64,000 nucleotides of DNA from Candidatus Omnitrophota bacterium (GCA_018812925.1 JAHJCU010000005.1:145955-209954), one strand, 5' to 3'; positions 4,705 through 53,772 are shown, numbered from the stretch's first letter. The notes: generated by a model not told the origin, from the sequence alone. Program-made: numbers and translations.

Positions 4705-5211
4705 ATGAATCCTATTGTTCTTGGTTTTGACCCCGGCATAAAAGTAAGTGGTTACGGAATAATTACGAAAGATAATAATTCAAAACTTACGACTATTGAC
4801 TATGGAATAATTGAAAATACTTATCCTGAGTCATATCCTTTGTATCTGGAAAAAATCTATGATAAAGTTGTTCAGTTAATAAAAAAGTTTAAGCCTGGCA
4901 GTATTGCGGTAGAAGAACCTTTCATTTCCAGAAACCCTAACGCAGGTTTGAAAATCGGACAAATTGTGGGAGTAGTTGGGTTGGTGGGAATAAAAAAGGG
5001 GCTTAGGGTTTTTGGTTATTCCGTTCTTGCTGTAAAACAAGCGGTTACCGGATATGGTAGAGCTGAAAAACAGCAGGTACAGGATATGGTGAAAAGAATG
5101 TTATCTTTGAATGTAGAATTCAAGCGTGTTGATATTTCAGATGCTTTGGGTGTGGCTATTTGTTGCATGAATTCTATGGATTGGGATAATAAAATAAAAA
5201 ACAACATTTAA
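4705..5211 (+). CDS. ruvC: Holliday junction resolvase RuvC
   Basis: LGFDPG, AVEE, KQAVTGYGRAEKQQVQ and SDALGVAIC motifs. Confidence 0.97.
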   Translation: MNPIVLGFDPGIKVSGYGIITKDNNSKLTTIDYGIIENTYPESYPLYLEKIYDKVVQLIKKFKPGSIAVEEPFISRNPNAGLKIGQIVGVVGLVGIKKGLRVFGYSVLAVKQAVTGYGRAEKQQVQDMVKRMLSLNVEFKRVDISDALGVAICCMNSMDWDNKIKNNI

Positions 5212-5266
5212 AATTTAAGATTGAAGATTCTAAGAATTTTTAATCTGTAATTTTCAATCTTTAATA
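5208..5266. repeat. Heptamer-periodic palindromic intergenic element (AAGATT / AATCTT type)
   Basis: Left arm aaattta-agattga-agattct and right arm taatctg-taatttt-caatctt are approximate reverse complements with 7-nt period. Confidence 0.55.
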
Positions 5267-5275
5267 AGATAAACT

Positions 5276-5875
5276 ATGATAGATTCCTTGCGAGGTAAAC
5301 TCGCTTACAAATCTCCGACTTATATCAGAGTAGATGTTAATGGGGTGGGCTTCGGATTAAATATTCCCGTTTCTACATATAATTCCTTGGGAGAAATAGG
5401 TGTAGATATTAGTCTTTTTACTTATCTTCATGTCAGAGAAGATATGATGCGTCTTTATGGGTTTAAGACGGAAGAGGAGATTAAAACTTTTAAAATGTTG
5501 ATTTCTGTTACTTTGATAGGTCCGCAATTAGCATTGGGTATTTTATCTTCCATTTCATCAGATGAATTTAAAAAAGCAATAATCCAAGACGATTTTAATA
5601 GACTTGACGCTATACCCGGGGTCGGGAAAAAGACCGCCCAAAGAATGGTTATAGAGCTTAAAGAAAAGATTTCTTCTGTGGGAGGGATATTGGACAAGAC
5701 AGAAGGATTAAATGAAGCGGAATCATCGCTTATAGAAGAAGCGGTACGCGCGCTTATATCTTTGGGTTGCAGTAAAAAAGAGGCGCTTTTATCTATAAAA
5801 ACTTCATATATAACTATTAAAGACAAAAAGCCGTCTTTGGAAGAACTTATTAAATATTCTTTAAAACACTTATAA
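5276..5875 (+). CDS. ruvA: Holliday junction DNA-binding protein RuvA
   Basis: DVNGVGF, LHVRED, LYGF, IPGVGKKTAQR and ALISLG. Confidence 0.97.
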   Translation: MIDSLRGKLAYKSPTYIRVDVNGVGFGLNIPVSTYNSLGEIGVDISLFTYLHVREDMMRLYGFKTEEEIKTFKMLISVTLIGPQLALGILSSISSDEFKKAIIQDDFNRLDAIPGVGKKTAQRMVIELKEKISSVGGILDKTEGLNEAESSLIEEAVRALISLGCSKKEALLSIKTSYITIKDKKPSLEELIKYSLKHL

Positions 5876-5876
5876 A

Positions 5877-6905
5877 ATGGCAAAAGAAAGAGTTATAAAT
5901 CCGAAACCTACGCTTGAAGACAAAGAACTGGATAATGAACTGCGACCTGCATCTTGGAAGGATTTTGCGGGACAGGGAAAGATTAAGGAGCAGCTGTCCA
6001 TATTTATAAAGGCGGCAAAAGATAGAGGGGAAGCTCTTGACCATATTCTTTTTCACGGGCCTCCGGGATTAGGAAAAACCACTCTTGCCAATATAGTCTC
6101 AAGAGATTTAGGTGTTAATATTAATTCGACATCCGGTCCCGTTATAGAAAGACCCGTAGACTTGTCGGCACTTTTGTCGCGTTTGAAGGAAAAGGAAGTT
6201 CTTTTCGTAGACGAGATACACCGGTTGCCTCATACGGTAGAAGAAGTGCTTTATTCGGCTATGGAAGATTATAAGTTAGACATAATGGTTGGTAAGGGCC
6301 CCTCGGCGCGCGCTATAAAACTTGAACTTCCGCATTATACTTTAATAGGAGCAACCACTCGCACGGGGCTTATTACTTCTCCTTTGAGGGCAAGATTTGG
6401 GATGATAATTCGCATAGGTTTCTATAATGCCGGCGAACTTGCTCAGATAGTAAAAAGGTCTGCCAGAATTTTGAATATTGAAATAGATGAAGAAGGAGCC
6501 TGGGAATTGGCCTCAAGAAGCCGGGGCACTCCTAGAATAGCAAATAGACTTCTTCGTAGAGTAAGAGATTACGCTCAAGTAAAGGCTAACGGTGTTATTA
6601 ATAAAGATATTACAGCAAAAGCGTTGGAACTTCTGGGTGTAGATGAATATGGTCTTGACGAAATGGATAAACTTTTGCTTAAAACATTGGTGGAAAAGTT
6701 TAACGGTGGGCCTGTGGGAATAAAGACATTGGCGATATCTTTGGGCGAAGAAGAAGATACTCTCCAAGAAGTATGTGAAGCTTATCTTATTCAGCAGGGT
6801 CTTATAAAAAGAACCGCGCAGGGAAGAGAAGCCACGCCGTTATGTTATGAATGCTTGGGAATTGTTAAAGCAAAATCAAAGGAGCAGAAAAAACTTTTTA
6901 AATAA
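5877..6905 (+). CDS. ruvB: Holliday junction helicase RuvB
   Basis: LRP, GPPGLGKTTLA, FVDEIHR, GATTR and SRGTPR. Confidence 0.98.
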   Translation: MAKERVINPKPTLEDKELDNELRPASWKDFAGQGKIKEQLSIFIKAAKDRGEALDHILFHGPPGLGKTTLANIVSRDLGVNINSTSGPVIERPVDLSALLSRLKEKEVLFVDEIHRLPHTVEEVLYSAMEDYKLDIMVGKGPSARAIKLELPHYTLIGATTRTGLITSPLRARFGMIIRIGFYNAGELAQIVKRSARILNIEIDEEGAWELASRSRGTPRIANRLLRRVRDYAQVKANGVINKDITAKALELLGVDEYGLDEMDKLLLKTLVEKFNGGPVGIKTLAISLGEEEDTLQEVCEAYLIQQGLIKRTAQGREATPLCYECLGIVKAKSKEQKKLFK

Positions 6906-6917
6906 AGGGGGATTGTT

Positions 6918-7127
6918 ATGCAAAAAGTTAAAATTTTCATGAGTTCAGCTACAGGAGAAGGTCTTGAAGAACTTGAACAAATTATAAATAAATGGATTGA
7001 AAAAGAGAAAATTGAAATTAAGAATATTTCCACCTCGGTGAGACTTATACCGTCTGGAGAAAGAGCAAGTTTAACATCTGAAATAACAGACCAATTTATA
7101 GTTTGCCTAACCTATGAAAGCAAATAA
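6918..7127 (+). CDS. Small hypothetical protein (69 aa)
   Basis: GGGGG SD upstream; fills the gap between ruvB and metG on the same strand. Confidence 0.65.
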   Translation: MQKVKIFMSSATGEGLEELEQIINKWIEKEKIEIKNISTSVRLIPSGERASLTSEITDQFIVCLTYESK

Positions 7128-8649
7128 TAATCCGGGCAAATTTTACGTCACTACACCTATTTATTATGTAAATAGCATTCCGCATGTAGGGCATAGCTAT
7201 ACCACAATTGCGGCTGATGTTTTAGCGCGTTCTGCTCGTCAAGAAGGTAAAGAGGTATTTTTCCTAACGGGAACAGATGAGCATGGAGAGAAAATAGCCA
7301 AGGCATCTGAAGCTGTTGGAAAAACCCCAAAAGAGTTCTGCGACGAAATTTCCGCAAAGTTCAGATATGTATGGGATAAGCTAAATATATCTTATGATTA
7401 TTTTATCCGCACTACCGATAAAAAGCATGAAGACGCGGTAAAAAAATTCTTAAGTAACCTTCATGAAAACGGTCTGATATACAAAGGCAAATATGAAGGG
7501 CTTTATTGTCGAGGATGCGAAAAATTTCTACAAAAAAATGACATAGTAGAAGGTAAATGTCCTCTGCATTTAACAGAGCCGGAATTACTAAAAGAGGAAA
7601 ATTATTTCTTTAAACTAAGCGATTATAGAGATAAACTTATAGAATTGATAGAAAATGACACAATAGAAATACTCCCTATTGCGCTTAAAAAAGAAGTTTT
7701 AAGTAAGTTGATTTTGGGGATAGAAGATATTAGCATTTCCAGGCAAACCGTTCAGTGGGGAATAAATCTTCCGTTTGATGATTCTCAGACAATCTATGTC
7801 TGGATAGACGCTTTAATAAACTATATATCGTCTATAGGATATGCCGATGACAGCAAGAATTTCTCAAAGTGGTGGCCTGCGGATGTGCATTTAATGGCTA
7901 AAGATATATGTTGGTTTCATGCGGTTATCTGGCCCGCGATGCTTTTGGCGGTTGGAGAAAAAACGCCCAAAAAACTTTTTGTCCACGGTTTTTTTACCGT
8001 TGAAGGGCAAAAGATGAGCAAGTCATTGGGCAATATGATAGACCCTTTGCCTTTAGTGGAGGAATACGGAGCAGATACTTTGCGATACTTTCTTTTAACT
8101 GAATTCCCTTTTGACCACGACGGAGATTTTTCTATCAGGAGACTTGAAGAACGTTATAATAATGACCTTGCAAATGATTTGGGCAATTTGGTTTTGCGCA
8201 TATTGACGATGATAGAAAAATATTGCGAGGGGAAAATTCCAGCTGCAAATGATGAAGCAAACAATATTAAAATAAAATCTATAAAATTAGATTTATCCGC
8301 ACAATTGAATATTCGCAATCGGGAAATCGAAGCTGCGGAATTTTCCAAGGTATTGGTCAATATAATGAATTTGATACGGGAAACCAACCGGATTATAGAA
8401 GAATACGCTCCCTGGAATTTGGCAAAACAAAAAGATACCGATTCTTTAAATACACTTCTTTATTATTTGGCGCAACGACTTGCAACGATTGCAATATTGA
8501 TATATCCCTTCTTGCCGAACACGAGCGAAGTCATATTTAGACAGCTTGGACTTGAAGTTCCATCGGCTTTTTCAATTAAAGAAAATTTAATAACTCTTTT
8601 GCCGAATAAGAAAATAAAAAAAGAAAAACCGTTATTTCCTAAAAAATGA
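7114..8649 (+). CDS. metG: Methionine--tRNA ligase (short form, no C-terminal tRNA-binding domain)
   Basis: YVTTPIYY, PHVGH (HIGH), GTDEHG, YVWIDAL and KMSKS. Confidence 0.97.
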   Translation: MKANNNPGKFYVTTPIYYVNSIPHVGHSYTTIAADVLARSARQEGKEVFFLTGTDEHGEKIAKASEAVGKTPKEFCDEISAKFRYVWDKLNISYDYFIRTTDKKHEDAVKKFLSNLHENGLIYKGKYEGLYCRGCEKFLQKNDIVEGKCPLHLTEPELLKEENYFFKLSDYRDKLIELIENDTIEILPIALKKEVLSKLILGIEDISISRQTVQWGINLPFDDSQTIYVWIDALINYISSIGYADDSKNFSKWWPADVHLMAKDICWFHAVIWPAMLLAVGEKTPKKLFVHGFFTVEGQKMSKSLGNMIDPLPLVEEYGADTLRYFLLTEFPFDHDGDFSIRRLEERYNNDLANDLGNLVLRILTMIEKYCEGKIPAANDEANNIKIKSIKLDLSAQLNIRNREIEAAEFSKVLVNIMNLIRETNRIIEEYAPWNLAKQKDTDSLNTLLYYLAQRLATIAILIYPFLPNTSEVIFRQLGLEVPSAFSIKENLITLLPNKKIKKEKPLFPKK

Positions 8650-9362
8650 GAAAAGATAAACCGATAATAGTAGCTTTGGATGTTTTTACGAGAAAAGAGG
8701 CACAGCGCTTAGTAGAAGATTTAGTCGAATATGTTTCCATTTTCAAAATCGGACATCAACTTTTCTTAAAAGAAGGAATGGATATTATCCATATGATTCA
8801 AGATAAGGGCGCAGAAGTTTTCCTTGACTTAAAATTCCATGATATCCCAAGTGTTATATCAAATGCGGTAGAAGTGGCTTTTAATGAAAAGGTTTATATG
8901 TTGACTCTGCATTCTTTGGGCGGCAGAATGATGCTTGAGCAAGTTGTAAAAAAAGTTAAAACGTTATCTTCGGAAGGAAAGGGCAGGACACCGATACTTT
9001 TGGGCGTTACCATCCTTACGAGTTTAGATGAAGAAAAACTAAAGGAAATGGGTTTTTCTTTGCCGATGAAACAGCAGGTTCTAAAACTTGCCAAAATTAG
9101 CGAAGAGTGTGGTTTGGGCGGAATAGTTTGTTCCGGTGAAGAGATAAGTTTGATAAGAGATAATACAAAAGAGAATTTTATCATTGTTACCCCGGGAGTA
9201 AGACTGGAGAAGCTACCTTCAGACGACCAAGAAAGAATAATTGCCGTTGAAGATGCAATAAAACGCGGAGCGGATTATTTAGTTATGGGTAGAAGTATAA
9301 CGGAAAGTAAAGAACTAAAAAAGAAACTGGAATTGATTTTGGAGAAATTAAATAGATTATGA
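8646..9362 (+). CDS. pyrF: Orotidine-5'-phosphate decarboxylase
   Basis: VALD, FLDLKFHDIP, GVTILTS, VTPGVR and DDQER. Confidence 0.97.
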   Translation: MRKDKPIIVALDVFTRKEAQRLVEDLVEYVSIFKIGHQLFLKEGMDIIHMIQDKGAEVFLDLKFHDIPSVISNAVEVAFNEKVYMLTLHSLGGRMMLEQVVKKVKTLSSEGKGRTPILLGVTILTSLDEEKLKEMGFSLPMKQQVLKLAKISEECGLGGIVCSGEEISLIRDNTKENFIIVTPGVRLEKLPSDDQERIIAVEDAIKRGADYLVMGRSITESKELKKKLELILEKLNRL

Positions 9363-9402
9363 TATAATTCCACCCTAATAATTTAATAAGGAGTTTTTAA
9401 TT

Positions 9403-9672
9403 ATGCCTTTTACTAAGGAAGATAAAGCGAAAATAGTTGAAGAATTCGGTAAAGACCCTAAAAATACAGGTTCGCCGGAGGTGCAAATAGCAATTATTAC
9501 ACAGAGAATAAACACTCTTTCGCAGCATCTTGCGAAATTTAAACATGACCGCACATCCAAAAGAGGATTACTGCAATTGGTCGGTAAAAGAAGAGCTTTA
9601 CTAAATTATTTAAAAAAAGAGTCCGAAGCCCGATATTTGGAAACGCTTAAAAAACTTGGTCTTAGAAAGTAA
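9403..9672 (+). CDS. rpsO: 30S ribosomal protein S15
   Basis: TGSPEVQIA, HDRTSKRGLLQLVGKRR and LGLRK. Confidence 0.98.
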   Translation: MPFTKEDKAKIVEEFGKDPKNTGSPEVQIAIITQRINTLSQHLAKFKHDRTSKRGLLQLVGKRRALLNYLKKESEARYLETLKKLGLRK

Positions 9673-9687
9673 ATCTTAAAGAAAACC

Positions 9688-10254
9688 TTGCAAGCAAAAA
9701 CACAAAGAGTTCGAATAAATAGATGGATTAGGGCAGAAACGGTTAGAGTAGTAGGACCCGATAGCAAACAGATAGGCGTTATGCCGTTAAATCGTGCTTT
9801 ATATATTGCTAAAGAGTTGGAATTAGACCTTGTGGAAGTGGCTCCGGAAGCTAAACCGCCGGTATGCAGAATAATAGATTTCGGAAAATATAAATACGAA
9901 CAACAAAAGAGAGAGAAAAACCAGAAGAAACAACAGAGAGTACAGCAGATGAAGGAAATGGTTTTTAGGCCTTCCATCGGCGAGCACGATTTTGAAGTAA
10001 AAGCAAAACACATCAGAGAGTTTCTTGAGGATGGGCATAAAGCGAAAATAGTAGTGCGATTTAGAAGAGGAGAGATGGCTCGTAAGGAAAGAGGTAGTCA
10101 GCTTCTCGCGAAAATACAGAAAGGGATGGAAGATATAAGTAAAGTTGCAAAACCTTCTTATATGTTAGGCAAAGCACTAATGATGGTTCTTGCGCCTATA
10201 GAAGTTAAGAAAGAGAAAAATGCCAAAACTGAAAACAAAGAAATCGGCGGCTAA
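9688..10254 (+). CDS. infC: Translation initiation factor IF-3 (TTG start)
   Basis: RIN..IR, LDLVEVAP..PPVCRIIDFGKYKYE and FRP.IGEHD. Confidence 0.97.
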   Translation: MQAKTQRVRINRWIRAETVRVVGPDSKQIGVMPLNRALYIAKELELDLVEVAPEAKPPVCRIIDFGKYKYEQQKREKNQKKQQRVQQMKEMVFRPSIGEHDFEVKAKHIREFLEDGHKAKIVVRFRRGEMARKERGSQLLAKIQKGMEDISKVAKPSYMLGKALMMVLAPIEVKKEKNAKTENKEIGG

Positions 10255-10417
10255 AAGGTTTCGTCGTTCTGCTTCCGGAAAAATAATAAGAAACAAAGCA
10301 GGAAAACGACACTTTTTAAGCAGTAAAGGTACAACGCAGAAAAGAAGATTAGCGCAAAAAGATACAGTTGATGCGTCAGACCATAAAAGAATAAAAGAGC
10401 TGATACCTTATAAATAA
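10220..10417 (+). CDS. rpmI: 50S ribosomal protein L35
   Basis: MPKLKTKKSAAKRF; located between infC and rplT. Confidence 0.97.
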   Translation: MPKLKTKKSAAKRFRRSASGKIIRNKAGKRHFLSSKGTTQKRRLAQKDTVDASDHKRIKELIPYK

Positions 10418-10468
10418 GGACAGATGTCAGAAAACAGAGGACAGAAAAATCTGGTTTTTGTTATCTGA
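10418..10468. repeat. Heptamer palindromic element (NNNCAGA / TCTG family)
   Basis: ggacaga-tgtcaga-aaacaga-ggacaga followed by inverted tctg units; same family as 44188-44310. Confidence 0.7.
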
Positions 10469-10492
10469 TTACGAACAGGGTGAGGAGTAAAG

Positions 10493-10870
10493 ATGTCTAG
10501 AGTAAAAAGAGGAACAATAAAAAAGAAAAAAAGAAGAAGAATATTAGGCAAAGCAAAGGGATATGTTGCCGGCAGAAGTAAACTCTATACCGTGGCAAAG
10601 GATGCTGTTCAAAAAGGACTTGTCTATGCCTATAGAGACAGAAGAACAAAAAAGAGAAACTTCCGCAGTTTGTGGATACAGAGAATAAATGCCGCTACAA
10701 GAAGCCAGGGCATAACCTATTCGCAGTTGATTGACGGCTTAGCCAAAGCCAATGTCGAAATAAACAGAAAAATGCTGGCAGAAATGGCAGTCAACGCTCC
10801 AGAATCATTCTCTGCATTAGTTGAAATTGCGAAGAAACATATTACCGTAAAACCTGCTAAGGCGAGTTAA
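10493..10870 (+). CDS. rplT: 50S ribosomal protein L20
   Basis: MSRVKRG, AKGY, YAYRDRR, FRSLWIQRINAA and NRKMLAEMA. Confidence 0.98.
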   Translation: MSRVKRGTIKKKKRRRILGKAKGYVAGRSKLYTVAKDAVQKGLVYAYRDRRTKKRNFRSLWIQRINAATRSQGITYSQLIDGLAKANVEINRKMLAEMAVNAPESFSALVEIAKKHITVKPAKAS

Positions 10871-10881
10871 GGATGACTCTG

Positions 10882-10933
10882 GAAGTAAAAAGTTAGAAGT
10901 AAAAAGGTAAAACCACAAGTTAAAAGTTAAAAC
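10882..10933. repeat. Heptamer repeat arm (AAGTTAA-like), with inverted partner at 12078-12088
   Basis: gaagtaa-aaagtta-gaagtaa-aaaggta...aagttaa-aagttaa; taaaagttaaa (10921-10931) is the exact reverse complement of 12078-12088. Confidence 0.65.
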
Positions 10934-10938
10934 AAGAA

Positions 10939-12070
10939 TTAGAATAGAGTCTTAAGATACACTTGGATAATTTTTACAACACCTTCAAAACAAGCCTTAA
11001 TGTCTTCTGAGCTCCATTCTTTTATTTTTTCTCCTGGTTTCGGAGCATGACGAATATCAGCATAACTTGCGTTAGCAACTTTCCCTATCAAATTCCATTC
11101 AGTATTACATCCTATAATATCTTTAGCTTCTTTCTCACCGCCATATTTTTTTTCTAAAACCTCAATGATTTTATAAAGATAAAAGAGAGCAACATCATCC
11201 TGTTTTAAAGCATTATCATGGTATTTGAGTACTAAATTCGCCGTATCGTCACTTTCTATGGTTTGGATTTTAATACGAGTAGCTGTAGCCAATTTTTCCT
11301 TGGCAGGTTCAAATTTTTTATCCAGAATCTCTCGTTCGTTTTCTAATTTTTGCATTTCTTCCTTGATTTTTTCTTCTCCGAGAGATAAAAAAAGATCAAT
11401 TATATTTACCTTCGATTGGGTCTCATAAATTTTCGGTATCACTCTATTAAGAAAAGTAGCTATGATTTCTTCATTAGATTTATATTCAGGCAGTATTATC
11501 AATTGTCCGTCTCCTATCTCTAGGGAGATACCCAAAATCTCACGGTTCATATTATAAAAAAGAAGAGCCCCACCTTCTCTTATTCTTAGTGGAACATTAA
11601 TCGTCTGCAAAATAGGTATTTTTAAGCTGTCTTTTACAACTAAGGGAGAAAGATAATGATTATTGAGGAAGACTAATACTATTACCAGCAAGTGGTTTAT
11701 AGTCTTTTGTAAACAATATTCCAGGTATAGATGGGATCCAATTATAAGCTTCATTTTGTTTTTTTAAGTCATCAACTATCCGATTGATAAAAATAAGGAA
11801 GGTGGCACCACGATAAATATGTCTGGATAAATTACTCAAGCTATATTCAGGTGTAAGGTCGTGAATATCACTACTTGAAATACAACCATGTTCATTCCTT
11901 GCAAAACAGTGAGGATCATATACAAATACATCCTTCTCATATACTTGACACGGCAAATTCCTTATTCCGTTACAAAAACCAATCGTACCCGAATCGACAT
12001 CAAAACCTTGGTGTTTAAGTTTCTCAGTTAAGCTACTTGAACAATCTAGTAATAAAATACTTGGTATCAT
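10939..12070 (-). pseudogene. Frameshifted accessory gene with a HEPN/MauJ-like C-terminus
   Basis: Overlapping ORFs 11660-12070 and 10939-11754 join into 377 codons if one base is removed near 11660-11695. C-terminal LYKIIEVL...ANASYADIRHA resembles HEPN-type domains. Confidence 0.6.
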
Positions 12071-12149
12071 AATTATCTTTAACTTTTACAATAACACACT
12101 TTTGTTTCACCATTATATTCCCCCACCAGAAAATTGGCAATCAATTAAC

Positions 12150-12229
12150 AACTGGCAATTGGTAATTAGTAAATGGTAATTGGTAATCTTGAAAATTACG
12201 GGTTACGGTTTACGAATTACCAGTTACGA
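12150..12229. repeat. Palindromic heptamer element family A (GGTAATT / AATTACC), copy 1
   Basis: Reverse complement aligns closely with 51100-51180 and 53698-53772. Confidence 0.85.
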
Positions 12230-12292
12230 GACTCAACTTTATGACTGTTACCATTTTCCAAAAGGTTTTAAGTCTTTAGTCTATAGTCTAAA

Positions 12293-13753: not shown

Positions 13754-13861
13754 TTTCTTTCTCCATTTTTTAATTTTGATTTTGTTGGTGTTGCAAGAAC
13801 AAAGAATTTTACTCTCATGTAGCGGATAGGTCAAAACAATCACTGTGAGTTTGGGCTAAGA

Positions 13862-13938
13862 ATTTAAGATAGTTGTAAGTTTTAGGTTTTAAGTTCTAAG
13901 TTACTACTTAAAACTTATCACTTACGACTTATAACTTG
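13862..13938. repeat. Palindromic heptamer element (TAAGTT / AACTTA family)
   Basis: taagttt-taggttt-taagttc-taagtta, short loop, then aaactta-tcactta-cgactta-taactt. Confidence 0.75.
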
Positions 13939-14051
13939 TTTCCCCTTTCTTGCTTCTGCGATATTTGTGATGTTATACTTAGACAAAATAGTTTATAGTT
14001 TAGGGTTGAGAGTTTATAGCTAGCCAACAAAATCAACAAGATAAATGAAAT

Positions 14052-44179: not shown

Positions 44180-44187
44180 TTTAAAAA

Positions 44188-45636: not shown

Positions 45637-45653
45637 CTTTTATCCTTATGCTT

Positions 45654-45747
45654 CCCGCACCAAAATTTCACAGAAATTTCTCTAAAAATTCGCGGGAATT
45701 TCTATAAAATTTCACAGAAATTTCTCCAAAAATCTTGGTGCGGGGGT
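45654..45747. mobile_element. MITE-like element: CCCGCACCAA / TTGGTGCGGG terminal inverted repeats around 11-mer tandem repeats
   Basis: 10-bp perfect TIRs; interior aaatttcacag-aaatttctcta-aaaattcgcgg-gaatttctata-aaatttcacag-aaatttctcca. Confidence 0.7.
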
Positions 45748-45752
45748 AAACT

Positions 45753-45845
45753 TTATTTATTTGTCTTATGTCTATCTCTTTTTCTTCTTTTCTTTAACTT
45801 ATGAGTAGACATCTTTTTTCTTTTTCTCTTTCTACCGCAAGGCAT
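45753..45845 (-). CDS. AURKAIP1/COX24-family small ribosomal protein (bS22/mS38-like), 30 aa; absent from the ORF track
   Basis: Manual translation MPCGRKRKRKKMSTHKLKKRRKRDRHKTNK; strong AAGGAGG SD upstream. Confidence 0.88.
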   Translation of the reverse strand: MPCGRKRKRKKMSTHKLKKRRKRDRHKTNK

Positions 45846-45901
45846 TTTAGCCCTCCTTTTTTTAAATACTCAAAGCAGCATTTGCTTTCTAATTTTTCAA
45901 A

Positions 45902-47020
45902 CTAAGTAAAGTTTTCAAAAAATTTATCCAAAAACCTTTTTCTATGTGGAATATTCTTGTCAGTTTCGAGCTTAGAAAATTCCTGCATAAGCTTTTTCTG
46001 CTCTTTGCTCAAATTGACCGGAGTTTCTATGAGTAATCTAACATACTGATCTCCGCTCCTGCGACCATGAAGATTCGGCATGCCTTTTCCTCTCAAGCGA
46101 AACACTTTGCTGTTTTGCACTCCGTGAGGAATTTGTATTTTGGTTTTCCCATCCAAAGTTGGGATTTCTATTTCTCCACCCAAACAAGCTATTGTTATAG
46201 AAATCGGAATATCTGTGATTATATCATCATCTTTTCTTTGAAAGAAGGGGTCTTCATCAACATGAACAAAAATATAAAGGTCTCCGGAAGAACTACCTTT
46301 TACCGCTCCTTCTCCTTCGCCTTTTATTTTGAGACGAGCGCCGGTATCTACGCCTTTTGGAATATTAGCAGTAATTTTTTGGGATTTTTTAACTTTTCCT
46401 CTTCCGCGACAGCTATTGCAGAGCGTTGTTATTACTGTGCCGGCTCCTGCGCATTTTGGACATGTGCGTCTTATAATTATACCTATAAATCCCTGTTGAA
46501 AAGTGGTTTCGCCCTTTCCGTTGCATTCGGGGCAAGTTTTAACGCTTGTTCCCGGCTCGTGACCTTCGCCTTTACAGTGAGGACAGGTGTCGTTTTTGGA
46601 TATTGTAATTTCTTTGATTATTCCCGTGTATGCTTCTTTTAGAGAAATTTTTAAATCATATCGCAAGTCTGCACTTCTGCGAGTTCTGGAACGAGAGGTT
46701 CCTCCAAAAAATGAACCGAATATATCCTGAAAATCCGTAAAGACATCCGAAGAAAAAATGTCAGAAAAATCGCTAAATCCTCCAAATCCTGCTCCTTTGA
46801 GTCCGACATGTCCGAATTGGTCATACGTTTGTCTTTTTCCCGGGTCTGACAAAACAGCGTATGCTTCCGATATTTCCTTGAATTTATCTTCTGCTTCCTT
46901 GTTGTTAGGATTTCTGTCAGGATGATATTGAAGAGCTGCTTTTCTATAAGTTTTTTTTATCTCGGCTCCTGAAGCGTCACGACTTACGTCCAAAACTTCA
47001 TAATAATCTTTTTTAGTCAT
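45902..47020 (-). CDS. dnaJ: Chaperone DnaJ
   Basis: KDYYEVL, HPD, G/F-rich region and four CxxCxGxG repeats. Confidence 0.98.
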
Positions 47021-47063
47021 TAGTTTTTATCTTTTCTGAGGATTTAAAAGCGGAATATAACTT

Positions 47064-48272
47064 TTATTTCTTTTTTTTCTGCTTTTCTAATATTTTAAGA
47101 GCTTGTATCTTTTGCGGAAGCCCGAAAAGTTCTATGAATCCTTTAGCGGATTGGTGATTAAAAATATCTTCCGGAGAATATGTCGCCATTTTCGTATTAT
47201 AAAGCGAATTTGGTGAATTTCTTCCTACTACAATACAGTTGGCTTTGTGTAATTTTAATGTAACTTCGCCGGTTGTATTCTCGTGTATTTTTTCTAAAAA
47301 TGAGTCAAGCGCTTCTTTTAAATCGGAATACCACAGGCCATAATAGACCAACTGGGCATATTTGCTGGAAATAACTTCCTTAAAATGTGTAGTTTCTCTG
47401 TCAAGAGTTAGGTTTTCTATTTCTCCTAAAGCTTTATGGAGCATAACTGCAGCAGGTGCTTCATATAGTTCTCTGCTTTTTATCCCAACGAGTCTGTCTT
47501 CTACCATATCAATTCTTCCTATGCCGTGTTTTGCACCTATACTATTAAGTTCTACGATAAGCGCAGATAATTCATATTTATTGCCGTCGAGCTTCTTAGG
47601 GATACCGTTTTCAAAGTATATTTTTATATATTGAGGCTTGTCGGGGGTCTTATCTATCGGATTTGTTTTATCCCATGCATCTTCCGGTGGTTCTTGATCG
47701 GGGTCTTCTAGAACACCGCATTCTATAGAAGTGCCCCAGATGTTTTTATCTATGCTGTAGGGACTTTTTTTCGTGGTTGAAACGGGGATATGATGTTTTT
47801 TCGCATATTCTATTTCTTCTTCCCTTGATTTAAGTTCCCATTCTCTTAGGGGAGCTATGATTTTTAAATTTGGGGCAAAAGAAAAGATTGTCAACTCAAA
47901 TCTTACCTGGTCGTTGCCTTTTCCGGTGCAACCGTGAGCTACGGCATCCGCCTTTTCTTTTCTAGCTATTTCTACCAATCCACTCGCGATTAAAGGTCTT
48001 GAAAGCGCCGTGGCAAGGGGATATTTCCCTTCATATAAAGCGCCTGCTTTTAGTGTGGGTGCTATAAATTCATTTGCGAATTCTTTTTTTAAATCTTCAA
48101 CATATACCTTAAATGCTCCCGTGCTTTTCGCTTTTTTTTCTATTTCACTCTTATTAATTTCATCTCCAATAGTAGCGGTATATGTTATGACTTTTGCTTT
48201 ATATTTATCTTTAAGCCATTTTAAGGCAACGGAAGTATCTAACCCACCAGAATAAGCAAGTACTATTTTCAT
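47064..48272 (-). CDS. argG: Argininosuccinate synthase
   Basis: LAYSGGLDTS, HGCTGKGNDQVRFE and GIKSRE. Confidence 0.98.
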   Translation of the reverse strand: MKIVLAYSGGLDTSVALKWLKDKYKAKVITYTATIGDEINKSEIEKKAKSTGAFKVYVEDLKKEFANEFIAPTLKAGALYEGKYPLATALSRPLIASGLVEIARKEKADAVAHGCTGKGNDQVRFELTIFSFAPNLKIIAPLREWELKSREEEIEYAKKHHIPVSTTKKSPYSIDKNIWGTSIECGVLEDPDQEPPEDAWDKTNPIDKTPDKPQYIKIYFENGIPKKLDGNKYELSALIVELNSIGAKHGIGRIDMVEDRLVGIKSRELYEAPAAVMLHKALGEIENLTLDRETTHFKEVISSKYAQLVYYGLWYSDLKEALDSFLEKIHENTTGEVTLKLHKANCIVVGRNSPNSLYNTKMATYSPEDIFNHQSAKGFIELFGLPQKIQALKILEKQKKKK

Positions 48273-48294
48273 TTACTCCTCCATTAAAAATTAA

Positions 48295-48403
48295 CATAGA
48301 AACACAATAGATATATACATAGAAATATATGGAAATAAATCGAAATATGTTGTCTGTCCACCACGTATTTCTACCATATTTCTACGCATATCTATATATT
48401 TCC
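48295..48403. repeat. Palindromic 11-nt-period element family C, copy 2
   Basis: atagaaa/atagata/atggaaa arms, core gttgtctgtccaccacg, then tatttcta arms. Confidence 0.8.
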
Positions 48404-48409
48404 TTTTTA

Positions 48410-48966
48410 TTATTTAGTATTAATAAGCCCTATTATATATCTCTCAGTCTCTTTTGCCAATTCATTCGAATTTATAAGTACTGAAAGTTCATTATTTTTT
48501 GATAATCCGGAATATGTCCAATTATGACTTCCTATTATTGTATACCTTGAATCTATGAATCTATCACTATTGTTTTTGTATGAGTCAGCGTTTCAACGCT
48601 ATTGTAATAAACTTTTACTCCTTTTTTCGAAAGGATTTTGCCGGTCTTCTGATTTTCCTTTGTGCTCTCCTCATCTCGGGAAATATCAAGCAAAACGGTT
48701 ACATCTACCCCCCTTTTCTTTGCTTCTATCAAAGCATTTACAAAGATATTGGACGGGGATTTTGGATATTGGGAATAATATTTAAAAGAATACATCGCAA
48801 CAAAGATAGATTTGGTTGCAGAATTAAATAGCGAATTAATTGTTTTACAATATTGTTCGGAAGTCAGCAATTCTACGTTTTCCGCCGTAAGTGCACAGAC
48901 GCTGGCTTGTTGCAGTAAAAATAAAAGAAAGAAGGTTATAAATAAAATCTTAAACTTTTGTGCCAT
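48410..48966 (-). pseudogene. Secreted PLD-family (Nuc-like) nuclease disrupted by an 8-bp duplication
   Basis: HTKTIVID motif, then TGAATCTA x2 at 48548-48563 creates a stop. Removing one copy restores SRYTIIGSHNWT...NNE and a 183-codon ORF. Confidence 0.88.
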
Positions 48967-49886
48967 TATTTTCCCAAAAGCAAAACCAACAACGCTTTTT
49001 GCGCGTGTAATTTGTTTTCTGCCTGTTCCCATACAATAGAGTGTGTGCCATCCAGCACTTCTGAAGTTATCTCTTCACCTCTATGAGCGGGCAAACAATG
49101 CATAACAAGAACGTGCTTTTTGGCTGCCTTGACAAGTTTTTCGTTTATCTGGAAATCTCTGAAAGCGTTTAATCTTGCTTTTTTCTGTTCCTCTTCGCCC
49201 ATGGAAACCCACACATCCGTATAAATTACATCCGCGTTTTTGACCGCCTCTATAGGATTACTTAATAGTTTGATTTTGCATTTCGGATTTATTTTTTGCG
49301 CGTCTTCCAAAATTCCTGAGCTTGGCTCATATCCTTTGGGAGAAGAAATGGTCAAGTTAATACCTGTTTTTGCCGAGCCGTATATCAATGAATTACAAAC
49401 ATTATTCCCGGCTCCTATATAAGTCAATTTTACATCTTCCAATTTACCGACTTTTTCTTTTATAGTAAACATATCTGATAAAATCTGACACGGATGGGAA
49501 AAATCAGATAAAGCATTTATCACGGGAATTGAAGAATTCTCAGCCAATTTAGTCAGATTGTCGTGGTTATATGTTCTTACAGCTAGAGCATCAAGATAAA
49601 GCGAGAAAATCTTTGCCGCATCGGATAGGGTTTCGCCTCTTTTTAACTGGAGTTGTTCGGATTGTAAAAACAATGAATTCCCGCCGAGTTCTCTTATGGC
49701 TATTTCAAAAGATATTCTCGTTCTTGTGGATAGTTTCTCAAATAAAAGCCCCAGGCTTTTTCCATCCAATAAATGGATAATCTTTTCCCCTCTTTTTCTT
49801 CTGATTTTTAATTCCGAAGCCATTTGAAAAAGAAGATTAATGTCTTGTTTATTTATATCTTTAATAGAAAGCAAATTTTTATTCAT
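48966..49886 (-). CDS. argF: Ornithine carbamoyltransferase
   Basis: STRTR, HPCQ, YTDVWVSMG and HCLPAHRGEE. Confidence 0.97.
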   Translation of the reverse strand: MNKNLLSIKDINKQDINLLFQMASELKIRRKRGEKIIHLLDGKSLGLLFEKLSTRTRISFEIAIRELGGNSLFLQSEQLQLKRGETLSDAAKIFSLYLDALAVRTYNHDNLTKLAENSSIPVINALSDFSHPCQILSDMFTIKEKVGKLEDVKLTYIGAGNNVCNSLIYGSAKTGINLTISSPKGYEPSSGILEDAQKINPKCKIKLLSNPIEAVKNADVIYTDVWVSMGEEEQKKARLNAFRDFQINEKLVKAAKKHVLVMHCLPAHRGEEITSEVLDGTHSIVWEQAENKLHAQKALLVLLLGK

Positions 49887-49890
49887 GGTT

Positions 49891-51078
49891 TTATTTTAGG
49901 TTAGTCAATACTTCTTCAAGAATCTTTATCCCTTCATCGATTTCTTTTTTCTGCACGATAAGAGGAGGAACAAATCTTAATACATTTTCGCCTGCTGTTC
50001 CTATGAGCAAACCCTTCTCCATGCATTTTAATAATATACCTCTTGCTCCGTTAGCAACAGGGGCAATTTCCATCCCCAACATTAGCCCTTTACCTCTTAC
50101 TTCTTTTATGAACGGATATTTACTTTTTAAACTGTTTAATTTGTCCTTAAAATAATCTCCCATCTTGCCAGCGTTATCAATCAGATTATCTCCCAACATT
50201 GTTTTTAATGTTACAACTGCGGCTTTTGTCGCAAGAGGATTTCCTCCAAAAGTCGCCGCATGATTGCCGGGACTAATACAGGAAGAAACTTTTTCGTTTG
50301 CGATTACGGCTCCTATAGGGACTCCTCCTCCCAACGATTTAGCAAGCGTAACCATGTCAGGTGTTATCCCGTAATATTCGTAAGCAAAGAGTTTGCCCGT
50401 TCTTCCCATTCCGCACTGGACCTCATCCAGAATGAGGAGTATATCGTTCTCATCGCAGAGTAATCTTACTTGTTTAAGGAATTCTTTTTTTGCGGGATTT
50501 ATGCCGCTTTCTCCCTGTACCGGTTCAATAAGTATTGCGCAAGTTTTGTCAGTAATAAGATTTTTGACGGATTCTATATTATTAAACTCTGCATATTTAA
50601 AACCCGGCAGTAACGGCTCAAACCCTTTATGGAATTTATCCTGCCCTGTTGCAGTAAGCGCTCCGTAAGTTCTGCCGTGAAAAGAACCGCTCATTGTGAT
50701 GATTTCGTACCTGCCCTGTCCGTATTTTCTTGCAAACTTGATAGCCGCTTCGTTTGCTTCTGCTCCTGAGTTACAGAAAAAACATTTTCCTGGGAAAGAG
50801 TTCTCAACGAGAATAGACGCCAATTCAATCTGATTTGGGATAAGGTATAAATTGGATGTGTGAATTAGTTTCTCAGCTTGTTCTTTAATTGCTTCAACCA
50901 ATTTGGGATGAGAATGTCCCAACCCACTAACCGCAATGCCGGAAAGAAAGTCTATATATTCTTTGCCTTCCACATCCCAAATCTTACATCCTTTTCCGTG
51001 AGAAAACGCAATAGTTTTCCCTGCGTATGTTGGGATAATATATTTTTGGTCTAATTTGATCATCTCTTGTGTATTCAT
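49891..51078 (-). CDS. argD: Acetylornithine aminotransferase
   Basis: NSGAEANEAA, SFHGRT, DEVQCGMGRTG and LAKSLGGG. Confidence 0.95.
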   Translation of the reverse strand: MNTQEMIKLDQKYIIPTYAGKTIAFSHGKGCKIWDVEGKEYIDFLSGIAVSGLGHSHPKLVEAIKEQAEKLIHTSNLYLIPNQIELASILVENSFPGKCFFCNSGAEANEAAIKFARKYGQGRYEIITMSGSFHGRTYGALTATGQDKFHKGFEPLLPGFKYAEFNNIESVKNLITDKTCAILIEPVQGESGINPAKKEFLKQVRLLCDENDILLILDEVQCGMGRTGKLFAYEYYGITPDMVTLAKSLGGGVPIGAVIANEKVSSCISPGNHAATFGGNPLATKAAVVTLKTMLGDNLIDNAGKMGDYFKDKLNSLKSKYPFIKEVRGKGLMLGMEIAPVANGARGILLKCMEKGLLIGTAGENVLRFVPPLIVQKKEIDEGIKILEEVLTNLK

Positions 51079-51099
51079 TTTTAATACGCCTCGCTATGT

Positions 51100-51180
51100 T
51101 CGTAACTGGTAAATCGTAAAGAGTAAAGCGTAATTTTAAATTACTATTTACCAATTACCATTTACCATTTACCATTTACG
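51100..51180. repeat. Palindromic heptamer element family A, copy 2
   Basis: cgtaact-ggtaaat-cgtaaag-agtaaag-cgtaatt, loop, then aattact-atttacc-aattacc-atttacc-atttacc-atttacg. Confidence 0.88.
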
Positions 51181-51187
51181 GGTTCTT

Positions 51188-52069
51188 TCATTTTGTTATC
51201 TCCGTTCCTACTCCTTTATCGGTAAATACTTCCAGAAGAATGCTATGCGAAATTCTTCCGTCTATTATATGTGTTTTCTTTACTCCGCCCAAAGTCGCTT
51301 TCTTGCAAGCGTTTACTTTTGGCATCATGCCGCCTTGAATAATCCCCTTTTTAATAAGTAAATCAATCTCAGATACCGGTATAGTAGAAATAAGCGTTCT
51401 TTCATCTTTAATATCTTTCAATATTCCGGGTTGGTTCGTGAGAATTATCATTTTCTCTGCTTTCAAAGCGATGGCAATTTCTGCGGCTACGATATCGGCG
51501 TTAATATTAAGCGTCATTCCGTTCTCTGTTACGCCTAATGGAGCGATTACCGGAATAAAACCTTCTCCGTTAGGCAAATTATTTTCGTTATCCAACGCCT
51601 TTATAATCGAAAGATTTATTTCTTCCACTTCTCCCACCCAGCCCAAGTCTTCCCCCTTTGAGGAATTGAGCTTTTTTGCTTTAATTAATTTACCGTCTTT
51701 TCCTGAAAGACCTACTGCGTGAGTTCCTGCCTGATTAATCAAACTAACAAGGTCTTTATTTATCTTTCCCAATACCATCTCAACGACTTCTACTGTTTCC
51801 TTGTCGGTTTTTCTCATTCCTTCTGAAAATTCCGCTTTTTTACCCAGTCTTTCCAATAAGTTAGTTACCTGCGGCCCTCCTCCGTGAATTAATACCGGCT
51901 TTATGCCGACAAATCTCATCAAAGCCATATCTTGGGCGATATTTTCTTTAACCTCTTCATTTGCTATGAGCTCACCGCCACATTTTATAACGATAACTTT
52001 ACCGTGAAATTGTCTTATATACGGCAATGCCTCTACAAGTATTTTCGCTCTATCAATCGCATTTTTCAT
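51188..52069 (-). CDS. argB: Acetylglutamate kinase
   Basis: EALPYI, VIKCGG, HGGGP, NINAD and GGMMPK. Confidence 0.97.
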   Translation of the reverse strand: MKNAIDRAKILVEALPYIRQFHGKVIVIKCGGELIANEEVKENIAQDMALMRFVGIKPVLIHGGGPQVTNLLERLGKKAEFSEGMRKTDKETVEVVEMVLGKINKDLVSLINQAGTHAVGLSGKDGKLIKAKKLNSSKGEDLGWVGEVEEINLSIIKALDNENNLPNGEGFIPVIAPLGVTENGMTLNINADIVAAEIAIALKAEKMIILTNQPGILKDIKDERTLISTIPVSEIDLLIKKGIIQGGMMPKVNACKKATLGGVKKTHIIDGRISHSILLEVFTDKGVGTEITK

Positions 52070-52071
52070 GG

Positions 52072-52404
52072 TTATTCTTTCCCATTTAATTTACCATCTT
52101 TTTTAAGATTCCCAACCCAAGATAACAAAAACGCTAAAACCAAATAGAAGATTATAGTTATCAATAATCCTGAAATACCATTAGGTGCAACGCCTATTCC
52201 TCCTCTCGAAAAATAGCTACCAAAACCTAAGGAATTTGCCAAACAAGCTGGTATGTAAAAGAACAAAATAACAAATCCCAAAGATCCAGGGAATTCTTGA
52301 GAAGTATTAGAAATTAATAATATAAGAGGAATTCCCAAAAACAATATTAAAAAAGATGTGAATAATCCCTTTCTTAATTTTGTGAACTTAAATATATTTA
52401 TCAT
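52072..52404 (-). CDS. Small membrane protein (3 predicted TM segments)
   Basis: Hydrophobic 110-aa ORF; ATGA overlap with the argJ stop; ends 2 nt before argB. Confidence 0.65.
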   Translation of the reverse strand: MINIFKFTKLRKGLFTSFLILFLGIPLILLISNTSQEFPGSLGFVILFFYIPACLANSLGFGSYFSRGGIGVAPNGISGLLITIIFYLVLAFLLSWVGNLKKDGKLNGKE

Positions 52405-53627
52405 GTCGTATAATGAGCATTTATTTTCACATATTCTTCCGTAAGGTCGCAAGTCCATACCGTGGTTTCTTTATCGCCGTGGTGCAAATCAACTTCAATA
52501 ATTATTGCATTCTCTTTTTTCAAAGAGACGGAAAGTTCCTTTTCATTATAATCAACAAATTTCCCTTTCTCTATCAAAGATGTCCCCTGTAATTTCAATG
52601 ATATTTTATCGGGGTTAAACTTCACCTTAACCGAACCCACAGCAGAAATTATTCTTCCCCAATTCGGGTCGGCGCCATACATAGCTGTCTTAACCAATGC
52701 AGAATTTGCAACTGCTTTCGCGGCTCTATGCGCATCCTTGTCATTCCAGGCGCCTTTAACTTTTACTTCTATAAGTTTGGTAGCTCCTTCTCCGTCGGAA
52801 GCCATTTTCTTCGCAAGTTCTTCGCATAAAAATGTAAGCGCTTGTGTAAACGCGGGAAAATTTTCACTTTTAGGTTTTATTCTCTCGTTTCTTGCCAAAC
52901 CGTTAGCCATTATGAGCACGGTATCATCGGGAGACATACACCCGTCAACCGTTAATCTGTTAAAAGATTTATTAACTGCAATATGCAACGATTCTTTGAG
53001 CGCGTCTTTGGATATGGACGCATCAGTCGTCAAAAATACAAGCATAGTCGCAACGTTGGGACAAATCATTCCCACGCCTTTTGCAATACCGCCGATTTTA
53101 ATCGTCTTGTTGCCTCTTCCCTTTATTCCCGTATCAATAGACAACTCTTTTGGCTTCGTATCTGTTGTCATTATCGCGGAAGCGGCAAGAACTCCGCCGT
53201 TGTAATTTAATTTTTCCACAGCTTCAATTATTCCCTTCTTAACTTTATCCATCGGCATTTTCTTACCTATAATGCCGGTTGATGACACCAAAACTTCTTC
53301 TTTTTTCACTCCCAAATTTTCAGCAGTTAAAGTAGCCATCTCCTCGGCGTCTTTAATCCCTTGTTCTCCGGTAGAAGCATTCGCATTACCGCTATTTACT
53401 ATAACAGCTCTGAAATTATCTCCATTTTTTAGATATTTCAAATCAACAATAACAGCCGCGCCTTTAAATTTATTTGTCGTAAACATCCCGGCGGTTAAAG
53501 CAGGGCCTTCGGAATATATAAGGGCTAAATCTTTTCCGCCCTTGTGTTTAATTCCGCAGGCTACACCCGAGGCTTTAAACCCCAAGGGTGCTGTAACCCC
53601 ACCTTCTATATTTTTAAATTTAAACAT
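52401..53627 (-). CDS. argJ: Bifunctional ornithine acetyltransferase / N-acetylglutamate synthase
   Basis: GFKASG, NSGNANA, STGIIG, IMTTDT, PNVATML, DGEGATK and NWGRI. Confidence 0.97.
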   Translation of the reverse strand: MFKFKNIEGGVTAPLGFKASGVACGIKHKGGKDLALIYSEGPALTAGMFTTNKFKGAAVIVDLKYLKNGDNFRAVIVNSGNANASTGEQGIKDAEEMATLTAENLGVKKEEVLVSSTGIIGKKMPMDKVKKGIIEAVEKLNYNGGVLAASAIMTTDTKPKELSIDTGIKGRGNKTIKIGGIAKGVGMICPNVATMLVFLTTDASISKDALKESLHIAVNKSFNRLTVDGCMSPDDTVLIMANGLARNERIKPKSENFPAFTQALTFLCEELAKKMASDGEGATKLIEVKVKGAWNDKDAHRAAKAVANSALVKTAMYGADPNWGRIISAVGSVKVKFNPDKISLKLQGTSLIEKGKFVDYNEKELSVSLKKENAIIIEVDLHHGDKETTVWTCDLTEEYVKINAHYTT

Positions 53628-53697
53628 ATATTTAACTATTATACGGTTAGGGCTACCTGCTTTGACGAGCAATGTGAGGCAGGCGATACCCGCTTTT

Positions 53698-53772
53698 TCG
53701 TAACTGGTAATCCGTAAATCGTAAAGCGTAATTTTGAAATTACTAATTACCGATTACCATTTACAATTTACG
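53698..53772. repeat. Palindromic heptamer element family A, copy 3
   Basis: cgtaact-ggtaatc-cgtaaat-cgtaaag-cgtaatt, loop, then aattact-aattacc-gattacc-atttaca-atttacg. Confidence 0.88.

Follow-up and report, generated by a model that had tools for sequence, protein, structure and literature searches.

Heptamer-armed palindromes at the gene junctions of a Candidatus Omnitrophota genome and their possible kinship with TIGR02436 gene cassettes

Introduction

Why should the junctions between housekeeping genes of a small groundwater bacterium hold fold-back elements of different sequence that share one periodic design? The question is raised by a stretch of 64,000 nt from a Candidatus Omnitrophota bacterium (the window, by which we mean the whole stretch analysed; C14:145955-209954 of the host genome, G000), in which the original prediction had listed nine palindromes, each with a left arm of degenerate 7- or 11-nt units, a short core and a reverse-complement arm, together with four single arms. 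The housekeeping content of the window comprises ruvCAB, metG, pyrF, rpsO, infC-rpmI-rplT, pheS, the dcw/mur cluster, dprA, tsaD, dnaJ, arg genes and folD, and groundwater and biofilm metagenomes contain the stretch. The nearest named relatives of one window protein are uncultured metagenome-assembled genomes at 59-60% identity, two of them Candidatus Omnitrophota.

In many bacterial genomes no long simple repeats are more over-represented than heptamers, an excess for which the published explanation, credited to Mrazek 2007 in the relevant sections of PMC4692102 and PMC4679880, is polymerase slippage. The host genome is an unusually dense, many-family case of such repeats. Our analysis places the listed sites in a population of fold-back elements found throughout the genome, and comparison of genome sequences links the arrays with the S23p/TIGR02436 genes, a widespread family of unknown function, and with the puzzle of the intervening sequences (IVSs) of ribosomal RNA (rRNA). 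The explanation that we favour, with about even confidence, is that the solo palindromes are gene-less members of a class of TIGR02436 cassettes, their unit numbers altered by slippage.

Results

The host genome (1.47 Mb in 14 contigs, 37% GC, 92% complete) was compared within a set of nine species genomes of its GTDB phylum (G000-G008), among which G001 has ~90% nucleotide identity to G000, G004 represents a sister genus and G005 belongs to family f2. Two short contigs of G000, C12 and C13, have 68-70% GC against 36-44% elsewhere and are probably foreign to the bin. Tandem arrays were called with Tandem Repeats Finder (TRF), with three dinucleotide shuffles as controls, and hairpins with a gapless scan under soft scoring, for which a score of 12 is the noise threshold; a strict Watson-Crick gapless scan (mismatch -2) returned just 32 hairpins and missed most of the listed sites, and the softer scoring was adopted.

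Period 7 dominates the genome. TRF reports 366 rows of period 7 against 73, 70 and 65 in the shuffles, 134 rows of period 14 against 16, 10 and 19, and 34 rows of period 21 against 2, 2 and 1, and a 4-mer occurs three times at lag 7 on 1040 occasions compared with 82-226 at lags 5, 6 and 8-12. The 11-nt variant of the proposed architecture is limited to a small family, and period 11 shows no overall excess (58 rows against 81, 80 and 64). Gapless hairpins scoring at least 12 number 222 against 47 and 36 in shuffles, and those scoring at least 14 number 87 against 4 and 3. Adjacent arrays form 67 pairs, of which 47 are inverted and 4 direct, with 16 left unclear. The 1.47 Mb hold ~355 heptamer-array loci and 86 clear palindromes with period-7 or -14 arms, 78 of the latter intergenic; on a crude open reading frame (ORF) map that assigns 9.2% of the genome to intergenic DNA, at least half of the length is intergenic in 268 of 411 arrays. 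Sharing of a family by neighbouring junctions, judged by heptamer distance, is not above chance (24 observed, 22.7 expected), and local same-family clusters are found at C11 369-390 kb, C4 27-30 kb and the arg operon.

The elements had been thought unrelated in sequence; instead they sort into GTAA, CAGA, TAAG and AAGATT families, plus a minor GAAATA family with units of 10-12 nt. An element is built of two inverted arms of 3-6 degenerate 7-nt units around a short A/T-rich centre, and each unit of a fixed 4-5-nt core plus 2-3 free positions, the cores GTAA, CAGA and TAAG agreeing with the three to four fixed bases per unit that had been predicted. Triples at lag 7 number 235 for GTAA/TTAC (0 at lags 6 and 8), 108 for CAGA/TCTG, 35 for TAAG/CTTA and 30 for AGAC/GTCT, while GAAATR/YATTTC arrays at spacing 9-13 number 18 against 0 at control spacings. 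The GTAA elements have 4-5 units per arm, a common centre GTAA-TTTT(T)AAAA-TTAC and frequent ends TTCGTAA...TTACGAA. Arm order is fixed in the families of G000, with GTAA before TTAC in 30 cases against 0, CAGA before TCTG in 16 against 0, and TAAG before CTTA in 8 against 0. G exceeds C in the 5′ arm of 65 of the 86 palindromes and falls short of it in 10, compared with 65 and 53 among other hairpins; outside the GTAA and CAGA families the G-first split is 27 to 7. Telomerase-like addition to 3′ ends (break healing) was considered as a source of this polarity and set aside, the polarity being mixed outside G000.

The link to a gene comes from the five TIGR02436 (S23p/Avd-like) genes of G000. 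An association with this family was among those that the original prediction had proposed to check, and all five genes lie between inverted periodic arms by reading, four of them at z>=4 in an alignment test. By comparison, just 222 of the 1358 junctions in the genome hold a period-7 locus of any kind. The arms are of the types CGGTTxx/xxAACCG, TAAGCTx/xAGCTTA, AGACTxx/xxAGTCT, the 10-12-nt GAAATA family and GAAATACGA; those of the GAAATA family surround the gene at C10:214889, and the window element at 33535-33665 belongs to the same family. In two of the five cassettes the layout is [L][R']-gene-[R]. A TIGR02436 gene is present in 14 of 31 genomes. Inverted flanks at z>=4 are found at 23 of the 30 loci with usable flanks, the best period being 7 in 19 of these 23, and outside the phylum the same threshold is reached at 10 of 15 loci. 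The G000 protein matches the solved pentameric Xanthomonas XCC0516 (2gsc) with an E value of 1.3e-17; we take the TIGR02436/S23p protein to be a four-helix bundle related to Avd, the accessory protein of diversity-generating retroelements.

Arm, gene and arm travel as one unit. The cassettes at C11:294419 in G000 and on C46 in G003 align over arm-gene-arm only, with 83% mean column identity including an insertion, and sit between unrelated flanks at non-orthologous junctions. The junction of the G003 copy is orthologous to C10:146101-146331 of G000, where a solo GTAA palindrome is found, and in all three alignable cassette junctions of G003 the G000 counterpart holds a solo palindrome of another family. 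The purF-like junction exists in three states, empty in G004, occupied by a cassette in G000 and by a gene-less GTAACCA-armed element in G001. The 67-nt loop of this G001 element opens with an ORF that resembled a TIGR02436 N-terminus, a likeness not supported by alignment (score 29 against 27 +/- 3 for shuffled sequence). Arrays and genes also occur together across the five phylum genomes compared: the lag-7 count per 100 kb is 65 in G000, 63 in G001 and 29 in G003, which have 5, 4 and 6 TIGR02436 genes, respectively, and 4.1 in G004 and 3.8 in G005, which have none. Period-7 palindromes follow the same order, at 5.85, 3.29 and 1.5 per 100 kb against 0 (G004) and 0.25 (G005). In the literature searched, with subscription papers outside its scope, we found neither a description of a link between TIGR02436/S23p and heptamer palindromes nor an account of heptamer or palindromic repeats of Omnitrophota with a cassette link. 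As a separate observation, C11:486154-486637 of G000 encodes a 129-aa predicted membrane protein, not of TIGR02436, between inverted A/T-rich heptamer arrays 399 nt apart.

The occupants of the junctions are highly variable among relatives, with unrelated families taking one another's place between flanks that remain 90-98% identical. An anchor in a 243-kb sample of G001 was found for 32 of the 355 array loci of G000, which were classed by reading aligned pairs: ~6 short or coding arrays are unchanged, ~5 loci stay within their family but differ in unit number, at least 14 have an unrelated array or element in G001, and the rest are absent or ambiguous. At the argJ-folD junction a GTAA palindrome in G000 corresponds to a GTTAAC-type array of period ~10-11 in G001 and G003 and to no element in G004, with ArgJ identities to G000 of 96%, 76% and 85% for G001, G003 and G004, and the promoter-like box of folD beside the junction is conserved in all four genomes. 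Between rpmI and rplT, G000 has 4+3 CAGA units, G001 5+4 and G003 an unrelated longer element; in G002 the site is empty, with the stop codon followed directly by the ribosome-binding site. A further locus, C4:30172, has 5 units in G000 and 2 in G001. The ruvC-ruvA gap holds a CTAAT-armed element in G001 and unrelated sequence in G003, and in a marine-metagenome contig of run X8, with ~1.6% differences in ruvC and ruvA, the 77-nt element is replaced by 73 other letters. Likewise, an 11-nt-family element stands in G001 in place of the ctpA-side element at 44185-44310, and the palindrome at 51100-51180 is replaced there. A pattern of four GTAA units gives 135 hits in G000, 20 in G001, 3 in G006, 7 in G007 and none in G002-G005 and G008, compared with 1 for the backwards control.

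At two G001 loci, L041 and L059, other MITE-like repeats (miniature inverted-repeat transposable element; GTCATTGCGAGC...GCTCGCAATGAC type) were seen where G000 has heptamer palindromes. The junctions are orthologous to C4:30270, 30415 and 87723 of G000, and G001 contigs tend to end there. More generally, the elements break assemblies, with G001 contigs ending at them.

Within the window, all nine listed palindromes fold better than their shuffles (RNA-fold z -2.77 to -6.87, 200 shuffles per site), with 0/200 shuffles matching the fold at eight of the nine and 5/200 at 53693-53777. TRF rows of period 7, 14 or 21 cover seven palindromes, and rows of period 10-12 the remaining two (33615-33642 and 48294-48391). 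Three of the four proposed single arms also have TRF rows. The fourth, at 38875-38915, is not confirmed, since it has no TRF row and no clear unit and lies within the overlap of the murG and murC ORFs.

The first palindrome (5203-5261; arms 5203-5231 and 5233-5261) is of the AAGATT heptamer family, with hairpin score 16 at period 7, fold z -3.7 and a TRF row at 5235-5265, and fills the gap from ruvC (4705-5211) to ruvA (5276-5875). The CAGA-family palindrome of 4+3 units at 10418-10468 (fold z -4.25; TRF 10420-10448) begins right after the stop codon of rpmI (10220-10417) and precedes the ribosome-binding site and start (10493) of rplT. A GTAA-family palindrome of 5+5 units around the centre TCTTGAAAA (12157-12225; C14:158116-158181; hairpin score 18, fold z -6.87) separates the minus-strand genes at 11660-12070 and 12293-13843. 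It is multi-copy, since a second high-depth contig from run X3 matches it with 4 differences. Next to it, a single-arm AGTCT heptamer array (12262-12292; TRF 12271-12290, period 7) adjoins the stop of the 2-hydroxyacid dehydrogenase gene. The divergent gap between this dehydrogenase gene (start 13843, minus) and pheS (14052, plus) holds a TAAG-family palindrome (13871-13936; C14:159830-159885; hairpin score 16.5, fold z -5.02) and, upstream of pheS, a single-arm ATAGTTT heptamer array (13988-14021; TRF 13988-14019, period 7, 4.6 copies). The TAGTCTA heptamer array at 24149-24204 (TRF 24167-24191), located at the start of a called btuF-like ORF, folds back weakly, its hairpin score of 12 being the noise threshold.

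Two palindromes have units of 10-12 nt. The GAAATA/TATTTC element at 33535-33665 (hairpin score 16, period 11, fold z -3.8) lies between murF (ends 33526) and mraY (33682), and the GAAATA-family element at 48294-48403 (hairpin score 14, period 10, fold z -3.39) lies upstream of argG (47064-48272, minus). The long CAGA-family palindrome at 44185-44310 (C14:190143-190260; fold z -5.4) consists of 8 CAGA units followed by TCTG units (TRF 44185-44242 and 44262-44308). Its right arm, 44262-44308, encodes the final ~13 codons of ctpA as called (44269-45636, minus) together with its stop codon, so that turnover of the element rewrites the C-terminal tail of CtpA; as such, the elements can extend or rewrite gene ends. 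Two GTAA-family palindromes complete the set: that at 51100-51180 (hairpin score 17.5, fold z -4.08) lies between argD (49891-51078) and argB (51188-52069), both minus, and resembles by reading the copy at 53698-53772 (hairpin score 15, fold z -2.77), which lies in the divergent argJ-folD gap directly upstream of the promoter-like box of folD.

Discussion

In its full form, a cassette of the kind described here would consist of a TIGR02436 gene, encoding an S23p/Avd-like pentameric four-helix bundle, between inverted periodic arms, whose repeated cores may serve as a cis-site read by the cassette protein or by a host factor. Solo palindromes would arise by gene loss, for example through recombination between the duplicated right arms of the [L][R']-gene-[R] layout, or alternatively by copying in trans, and slippage would afterwards shuffle and resize the arms. 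In operon transcripts the elements would form long hairpins, and the failure to find an RNase III gene in the lineage may explain why these are tolerated. The elements within the window all lack a TIGR02436 ORF, and their membership of the class, as gene-less relatives, is one that we infer from shared arm families and shared junctions. If true, this explanation would establish a new type of small mobile cassette, suggest the binding of periodic arms as a job for the four-helix-bundle protein, and account for intergenic DNA that in some lineages changes far more rapidly than the genes.

Several findings weigh against it. The co-occurrence of arrays and genes comes from five related genomes, four of them compared as samples of 195-400 kb. 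G012 has nine TIGR02436 genes yet only 0.25 solo palindromes per 100 kb in a 400-kb sample that takes in three of the nine genes, in a contig making up 380 of the 400 kb, so that a TIGR02436 gene alone does not produce solos; the AT-rich G017 lacks the gene and has 1.75 period-7 palindromes per 100 kb, or 7 of 109 hairpins. The largest solo families, GTAA and CAGA, have no gene-bearing copy in the 92%-complete G000, a CAGA-armed TIGR02436 gene being found only in G002 (L118). No junction was found in which the same arm family occurs both with and without the gene, and gene loss is therefore not directly seen. Protein identity and arm similarity are uncorrelated over the full set of cassette pairs (Spearman -0.04), and arms are common to the closest pairs only. 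Neither target-site duplications nor sharp ends were seen at the ends of 30 GTAA elements. The GTAA elements are mosaics rather than copies of a master: the mean pairwise identity of their arms, 0.73-0.74, is about the same as in controls with shuffled unit order, with unit order hardly conserved between copies (left arms 0.733 against 0.721, right arms 0.741 against 0.740). Between the two arms of an element, unit order is weakly mirrored (1316 of 1715 positions against 1205 +/- 13, a comparison subject to selection bias). Finally, the G-first polarity is weak in the samples of relatives, at 5 vs 2 in G001 and 2 vs 2 in G003.

Known repeats suggest how far the cassette explanation might reach. 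The relevant passages of Rehm et al. (2015, PMC4692102) describe the (GGGAATC)n/(GGGANTN)n arrays of Xanthomonas as degenerate heptamers with 4-5 fixed positions and mostly 4 units, intergenic, varying in length and sequence between close relatives, and forming 70-75 convergent pairs per genome on opposite strands that are potential stem-loops. The elements of G000 agree with this description, being convergent pairs of degenerate intergenic heptamer arrays built on a conserved core. The Xanthomonas arrays are, however, one G-rich family capable of forming G-quadruplexes, whereas G000 has many AT-rich families without G-tracts and with cores that contain a single G (GTAA, CAGA), and the Xanthomonas repeats keep context and type between species in 83% while the elements of G000 are replaced whole. 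No link to S23p genes is drawn in those passages of PMC4692102, and Xanthomonas is, according to a section of PMC4990558, the source of the solved S23p-family structure 2gsc. Tandem heptanucleotides are described in part of PMC4679880 (MacGregor 2015) as intergenic, often just upstream of starts and patchy across phyla, the TAACTGA repeats forming 169 direct sets and 1 indirect set in the genome studied there; in G000 it is the inverted pair that defines the element, and the host phyla differ.

The short tandemly repeated repetitive (STRR) sequences of heterocystous cyanobacteria, which have consensus units of their own, had been put forward among the nearest precedents. The comparison is apt for the architecture, tandem heptanucleotide arrays in intergenic DNA, and fails for sequence and host, the top cores of G000 being GTAA, CAGA, TAAG and AGAC and the host not cyanobacterial. 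The rRNA IVSs offer another parallel. As described in the corresponding sections of Warrier et al. (2016, PMC4990558), they carry an S23p ORF within terminal inverted repeats, the pairing of which gives a long stem (of 28 bp in Coxiella), lie in 23S rRNA helices from which RNase III excises them, and have a sporadic distribution that suggests horizontal spread; gene-less stem-loop IVSs exist too. The five G000 genes share with IVSs a PF05635/TIGR02436 ORF between inverted repeats. In contrast, the elements of G000 lie at protein-gene junctions and have arms made of periodic arrays. Searches for RNase III gave no match to TIGR02191 or PF00636 in G000, or to PF14622 in any of the nine phylum genomes (64%-96% complete). 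Such a lack, if real, is unusual for bacteria, and the RNase III excision known for rRNA IVSs is therefore not to be assumed here. A tentative generalization, which on balance we doubt, is that the heptamer excess between bacterial genes (STRR, GGGAATC and long simple sequence repeats) is no by-product of polymerase slippage but the footprint of one widespread selfish-cassette family, whose S23p/Avd-like protein would recognise and perhaps lay down or copy inverted 7-nt arrays, and which would colonise rRNA helices as IVSs and, where RNase III is absent, spread unchecked across operon junctions as gene-less elements.

The main rival is that the palindromes are a mutational by-product, made by a polymerase prone to slip by 7 nt and by quasi-palindrome template switching, in which one arm serves as the template for its partner, the hairpins being neutral and TIGR02436 inserting into their loops. 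We regard this as unlikely, though still a serious contender. The idea of slippage is already published for heptamers (in sections of PMC4692102 and PMC4679880), and it accounts for unit changes in place between sisters, at rpmI-rplT in both arms at once, for arms that are mosaics of a common unit vocabulary in an order almost unconserved, and for the absence of target duplication. Other tiny repeats also occupy the centres of GTAA elements: a conserved insert of ~30 nt (TTTTTTCAGTTGTTTTTTATTATTTAA type) stands in either orientation in the centre of six GTAA palindromes (G000 C6:41054, C10:99006, C10:147367, C10:219907, C11:374580 and C14:268474) and resembles a tiny repeat with hairpin loops as its target. 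Slippage is harder to reconcile with G004 and G005 (37% and 42% GC), which presumably have a similar replisome and show no lag-7 excess, and with polarity fixed by family and the shared centre and ends of the GTAA elements, which are unexpected from random seeds. Nor does it predict that arms move with a gene to a non-orthologous site or that whole elements are replaced at ~98% flank identity. The earlier claim of a common mechanism other than simple slippage gains from the specificity for period 7, the excess of inverted pairs, the fixed polarity and the arms around the TIGR02436 genes, and must be tempered to the extent that slippage contributes to unit numbers. The outcomes that had been named as refuting it did not arise, the arrays being rarer in shuffled sequence and highly variable among relatives.

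It is improbable, in our judgement, that the palindromes are selected cis-regulatory structures, either intercistronic hairpins acting in stability, processing or coupling, or arrays bound by a regulator, with structure and spacing selected and sequence free. The elements follow a stop codon and precede the ribosome-binding site of the gene after it, or else lie in divergent gaps, with medians of 13.5 nt from the stop and 21.5 nt to the following start (on crude calls) and 65% of the gap filled; they are located inside the essential operons rpmI-rplT, ruvC-ruvA and murF-mraY; and by reading a palindrome is retained in G000 and G001 despite unrelated sequence at 14 or more of the 32 anchored loci, all of which such selection would explain. 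Against this, the orthologous sites are empty in close relatives, in G002 at rpmI-rplT and in G004 at argJ-folD and the purF-like junction, and the hairpin is therefore dispensable. The 77 intergenic palindromes lie in 62 co-directional, 9 divergent and 6 convergent gaps, and their junction types (38, 24, 9 and 6, where the background counts are 613, 487, 130 and 128) reveal no preference. G-U and A-C mismatches are independent of the direction of transcription (63:40 in >> junctions and 34:28 in << junctions), so there is no sign of selection on RNA wobble pairs. An Rfam scan of the window returned a cobalamin riboswitch alone and no family at the palindromes, and RNase III, as noted, was not found. 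Contigs of RNA run X14 cover gene pieces only.

Very improbable is an origin as repetitive extragenic palindromes (REP, including bacterial interspersed mosaic elements, BIMEs, and the REP-derived hairpins called REPINs) moved by a REP-associated tyrosine transposase (RAYT; a Y1 HUH enzyme), or as ordinary MITEs of a DDE transposon. As with these repeats, the elements of G000 are abundant, dispersed, strain-variable intergenic imperfect palindromes in families, and five GTAA elements (G000 C10:145851, C11:247090, C11:306934, C11:571482 and C11:579764) adjoin a second palindromic repeat (CCCTTAGAGATTGC..GCAATCTCTAAGGG type), making BIME-like mosaics. An association with RAYT genes, also suggested at the outset, found no support: in a search limited to PF01797 (Y1_Tnp), G000 gave 0 matches, although the same search was positive in 6 of 14 control genomes. 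Unlike REPs and REPINs, moreover, the arms are internally periodic and the copies not near-identical, and unlike MITEs the inverted arms come without target-site duplication. Integron attC sites were set aside on gene context, the elements lying between housekeeping genes of fixed order. That the elements are intrinsic terminators or attenuators is scarcely credible despite their stable hairpins at gene ends, since the stems are AT-rich, 20-40 bp long and without the short GC-rich form and T-run of terminators, 0 of 19 terminator-like sites in 4000-15000 and 34000-53900 fall within the 8 palindromes covered, some elements lie in read-through operons (rpmI-rplT) and 9 in divergent gaps, and they are unconserved among relatives.

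Additional features of the window

Two heptamer arrays in the window are extra to those discussed above. An AAGTTAA array of 7.3 copies (10883-10932, by TRF) follows rplT, and a short TCGGTGT array (42431-42456, by TRF) lies between tsaD and a pilin-like gene, the orthologous site in G001 holding a different array. In the dnaJ/ctpA gap, 45662-45733 holds an array of period 11/22 (AAATTTC-type units) bracketed by inverted CCGCACC/GGTGCGG, a design unlike that of the heptamer palindromes. The ORF of ctpA (an S41 peptidase) contains a 129-nt tandem duplication (44360-44609; 1.9 copies, 86% matches). The cobalamin riboswitch lies at 20477-20656 (69.6 bits), and downstream of it are pilin-like and DUF1559 genes, a split metH-like pair (22399-24112) and a B12-type uptake set (24123-26861).

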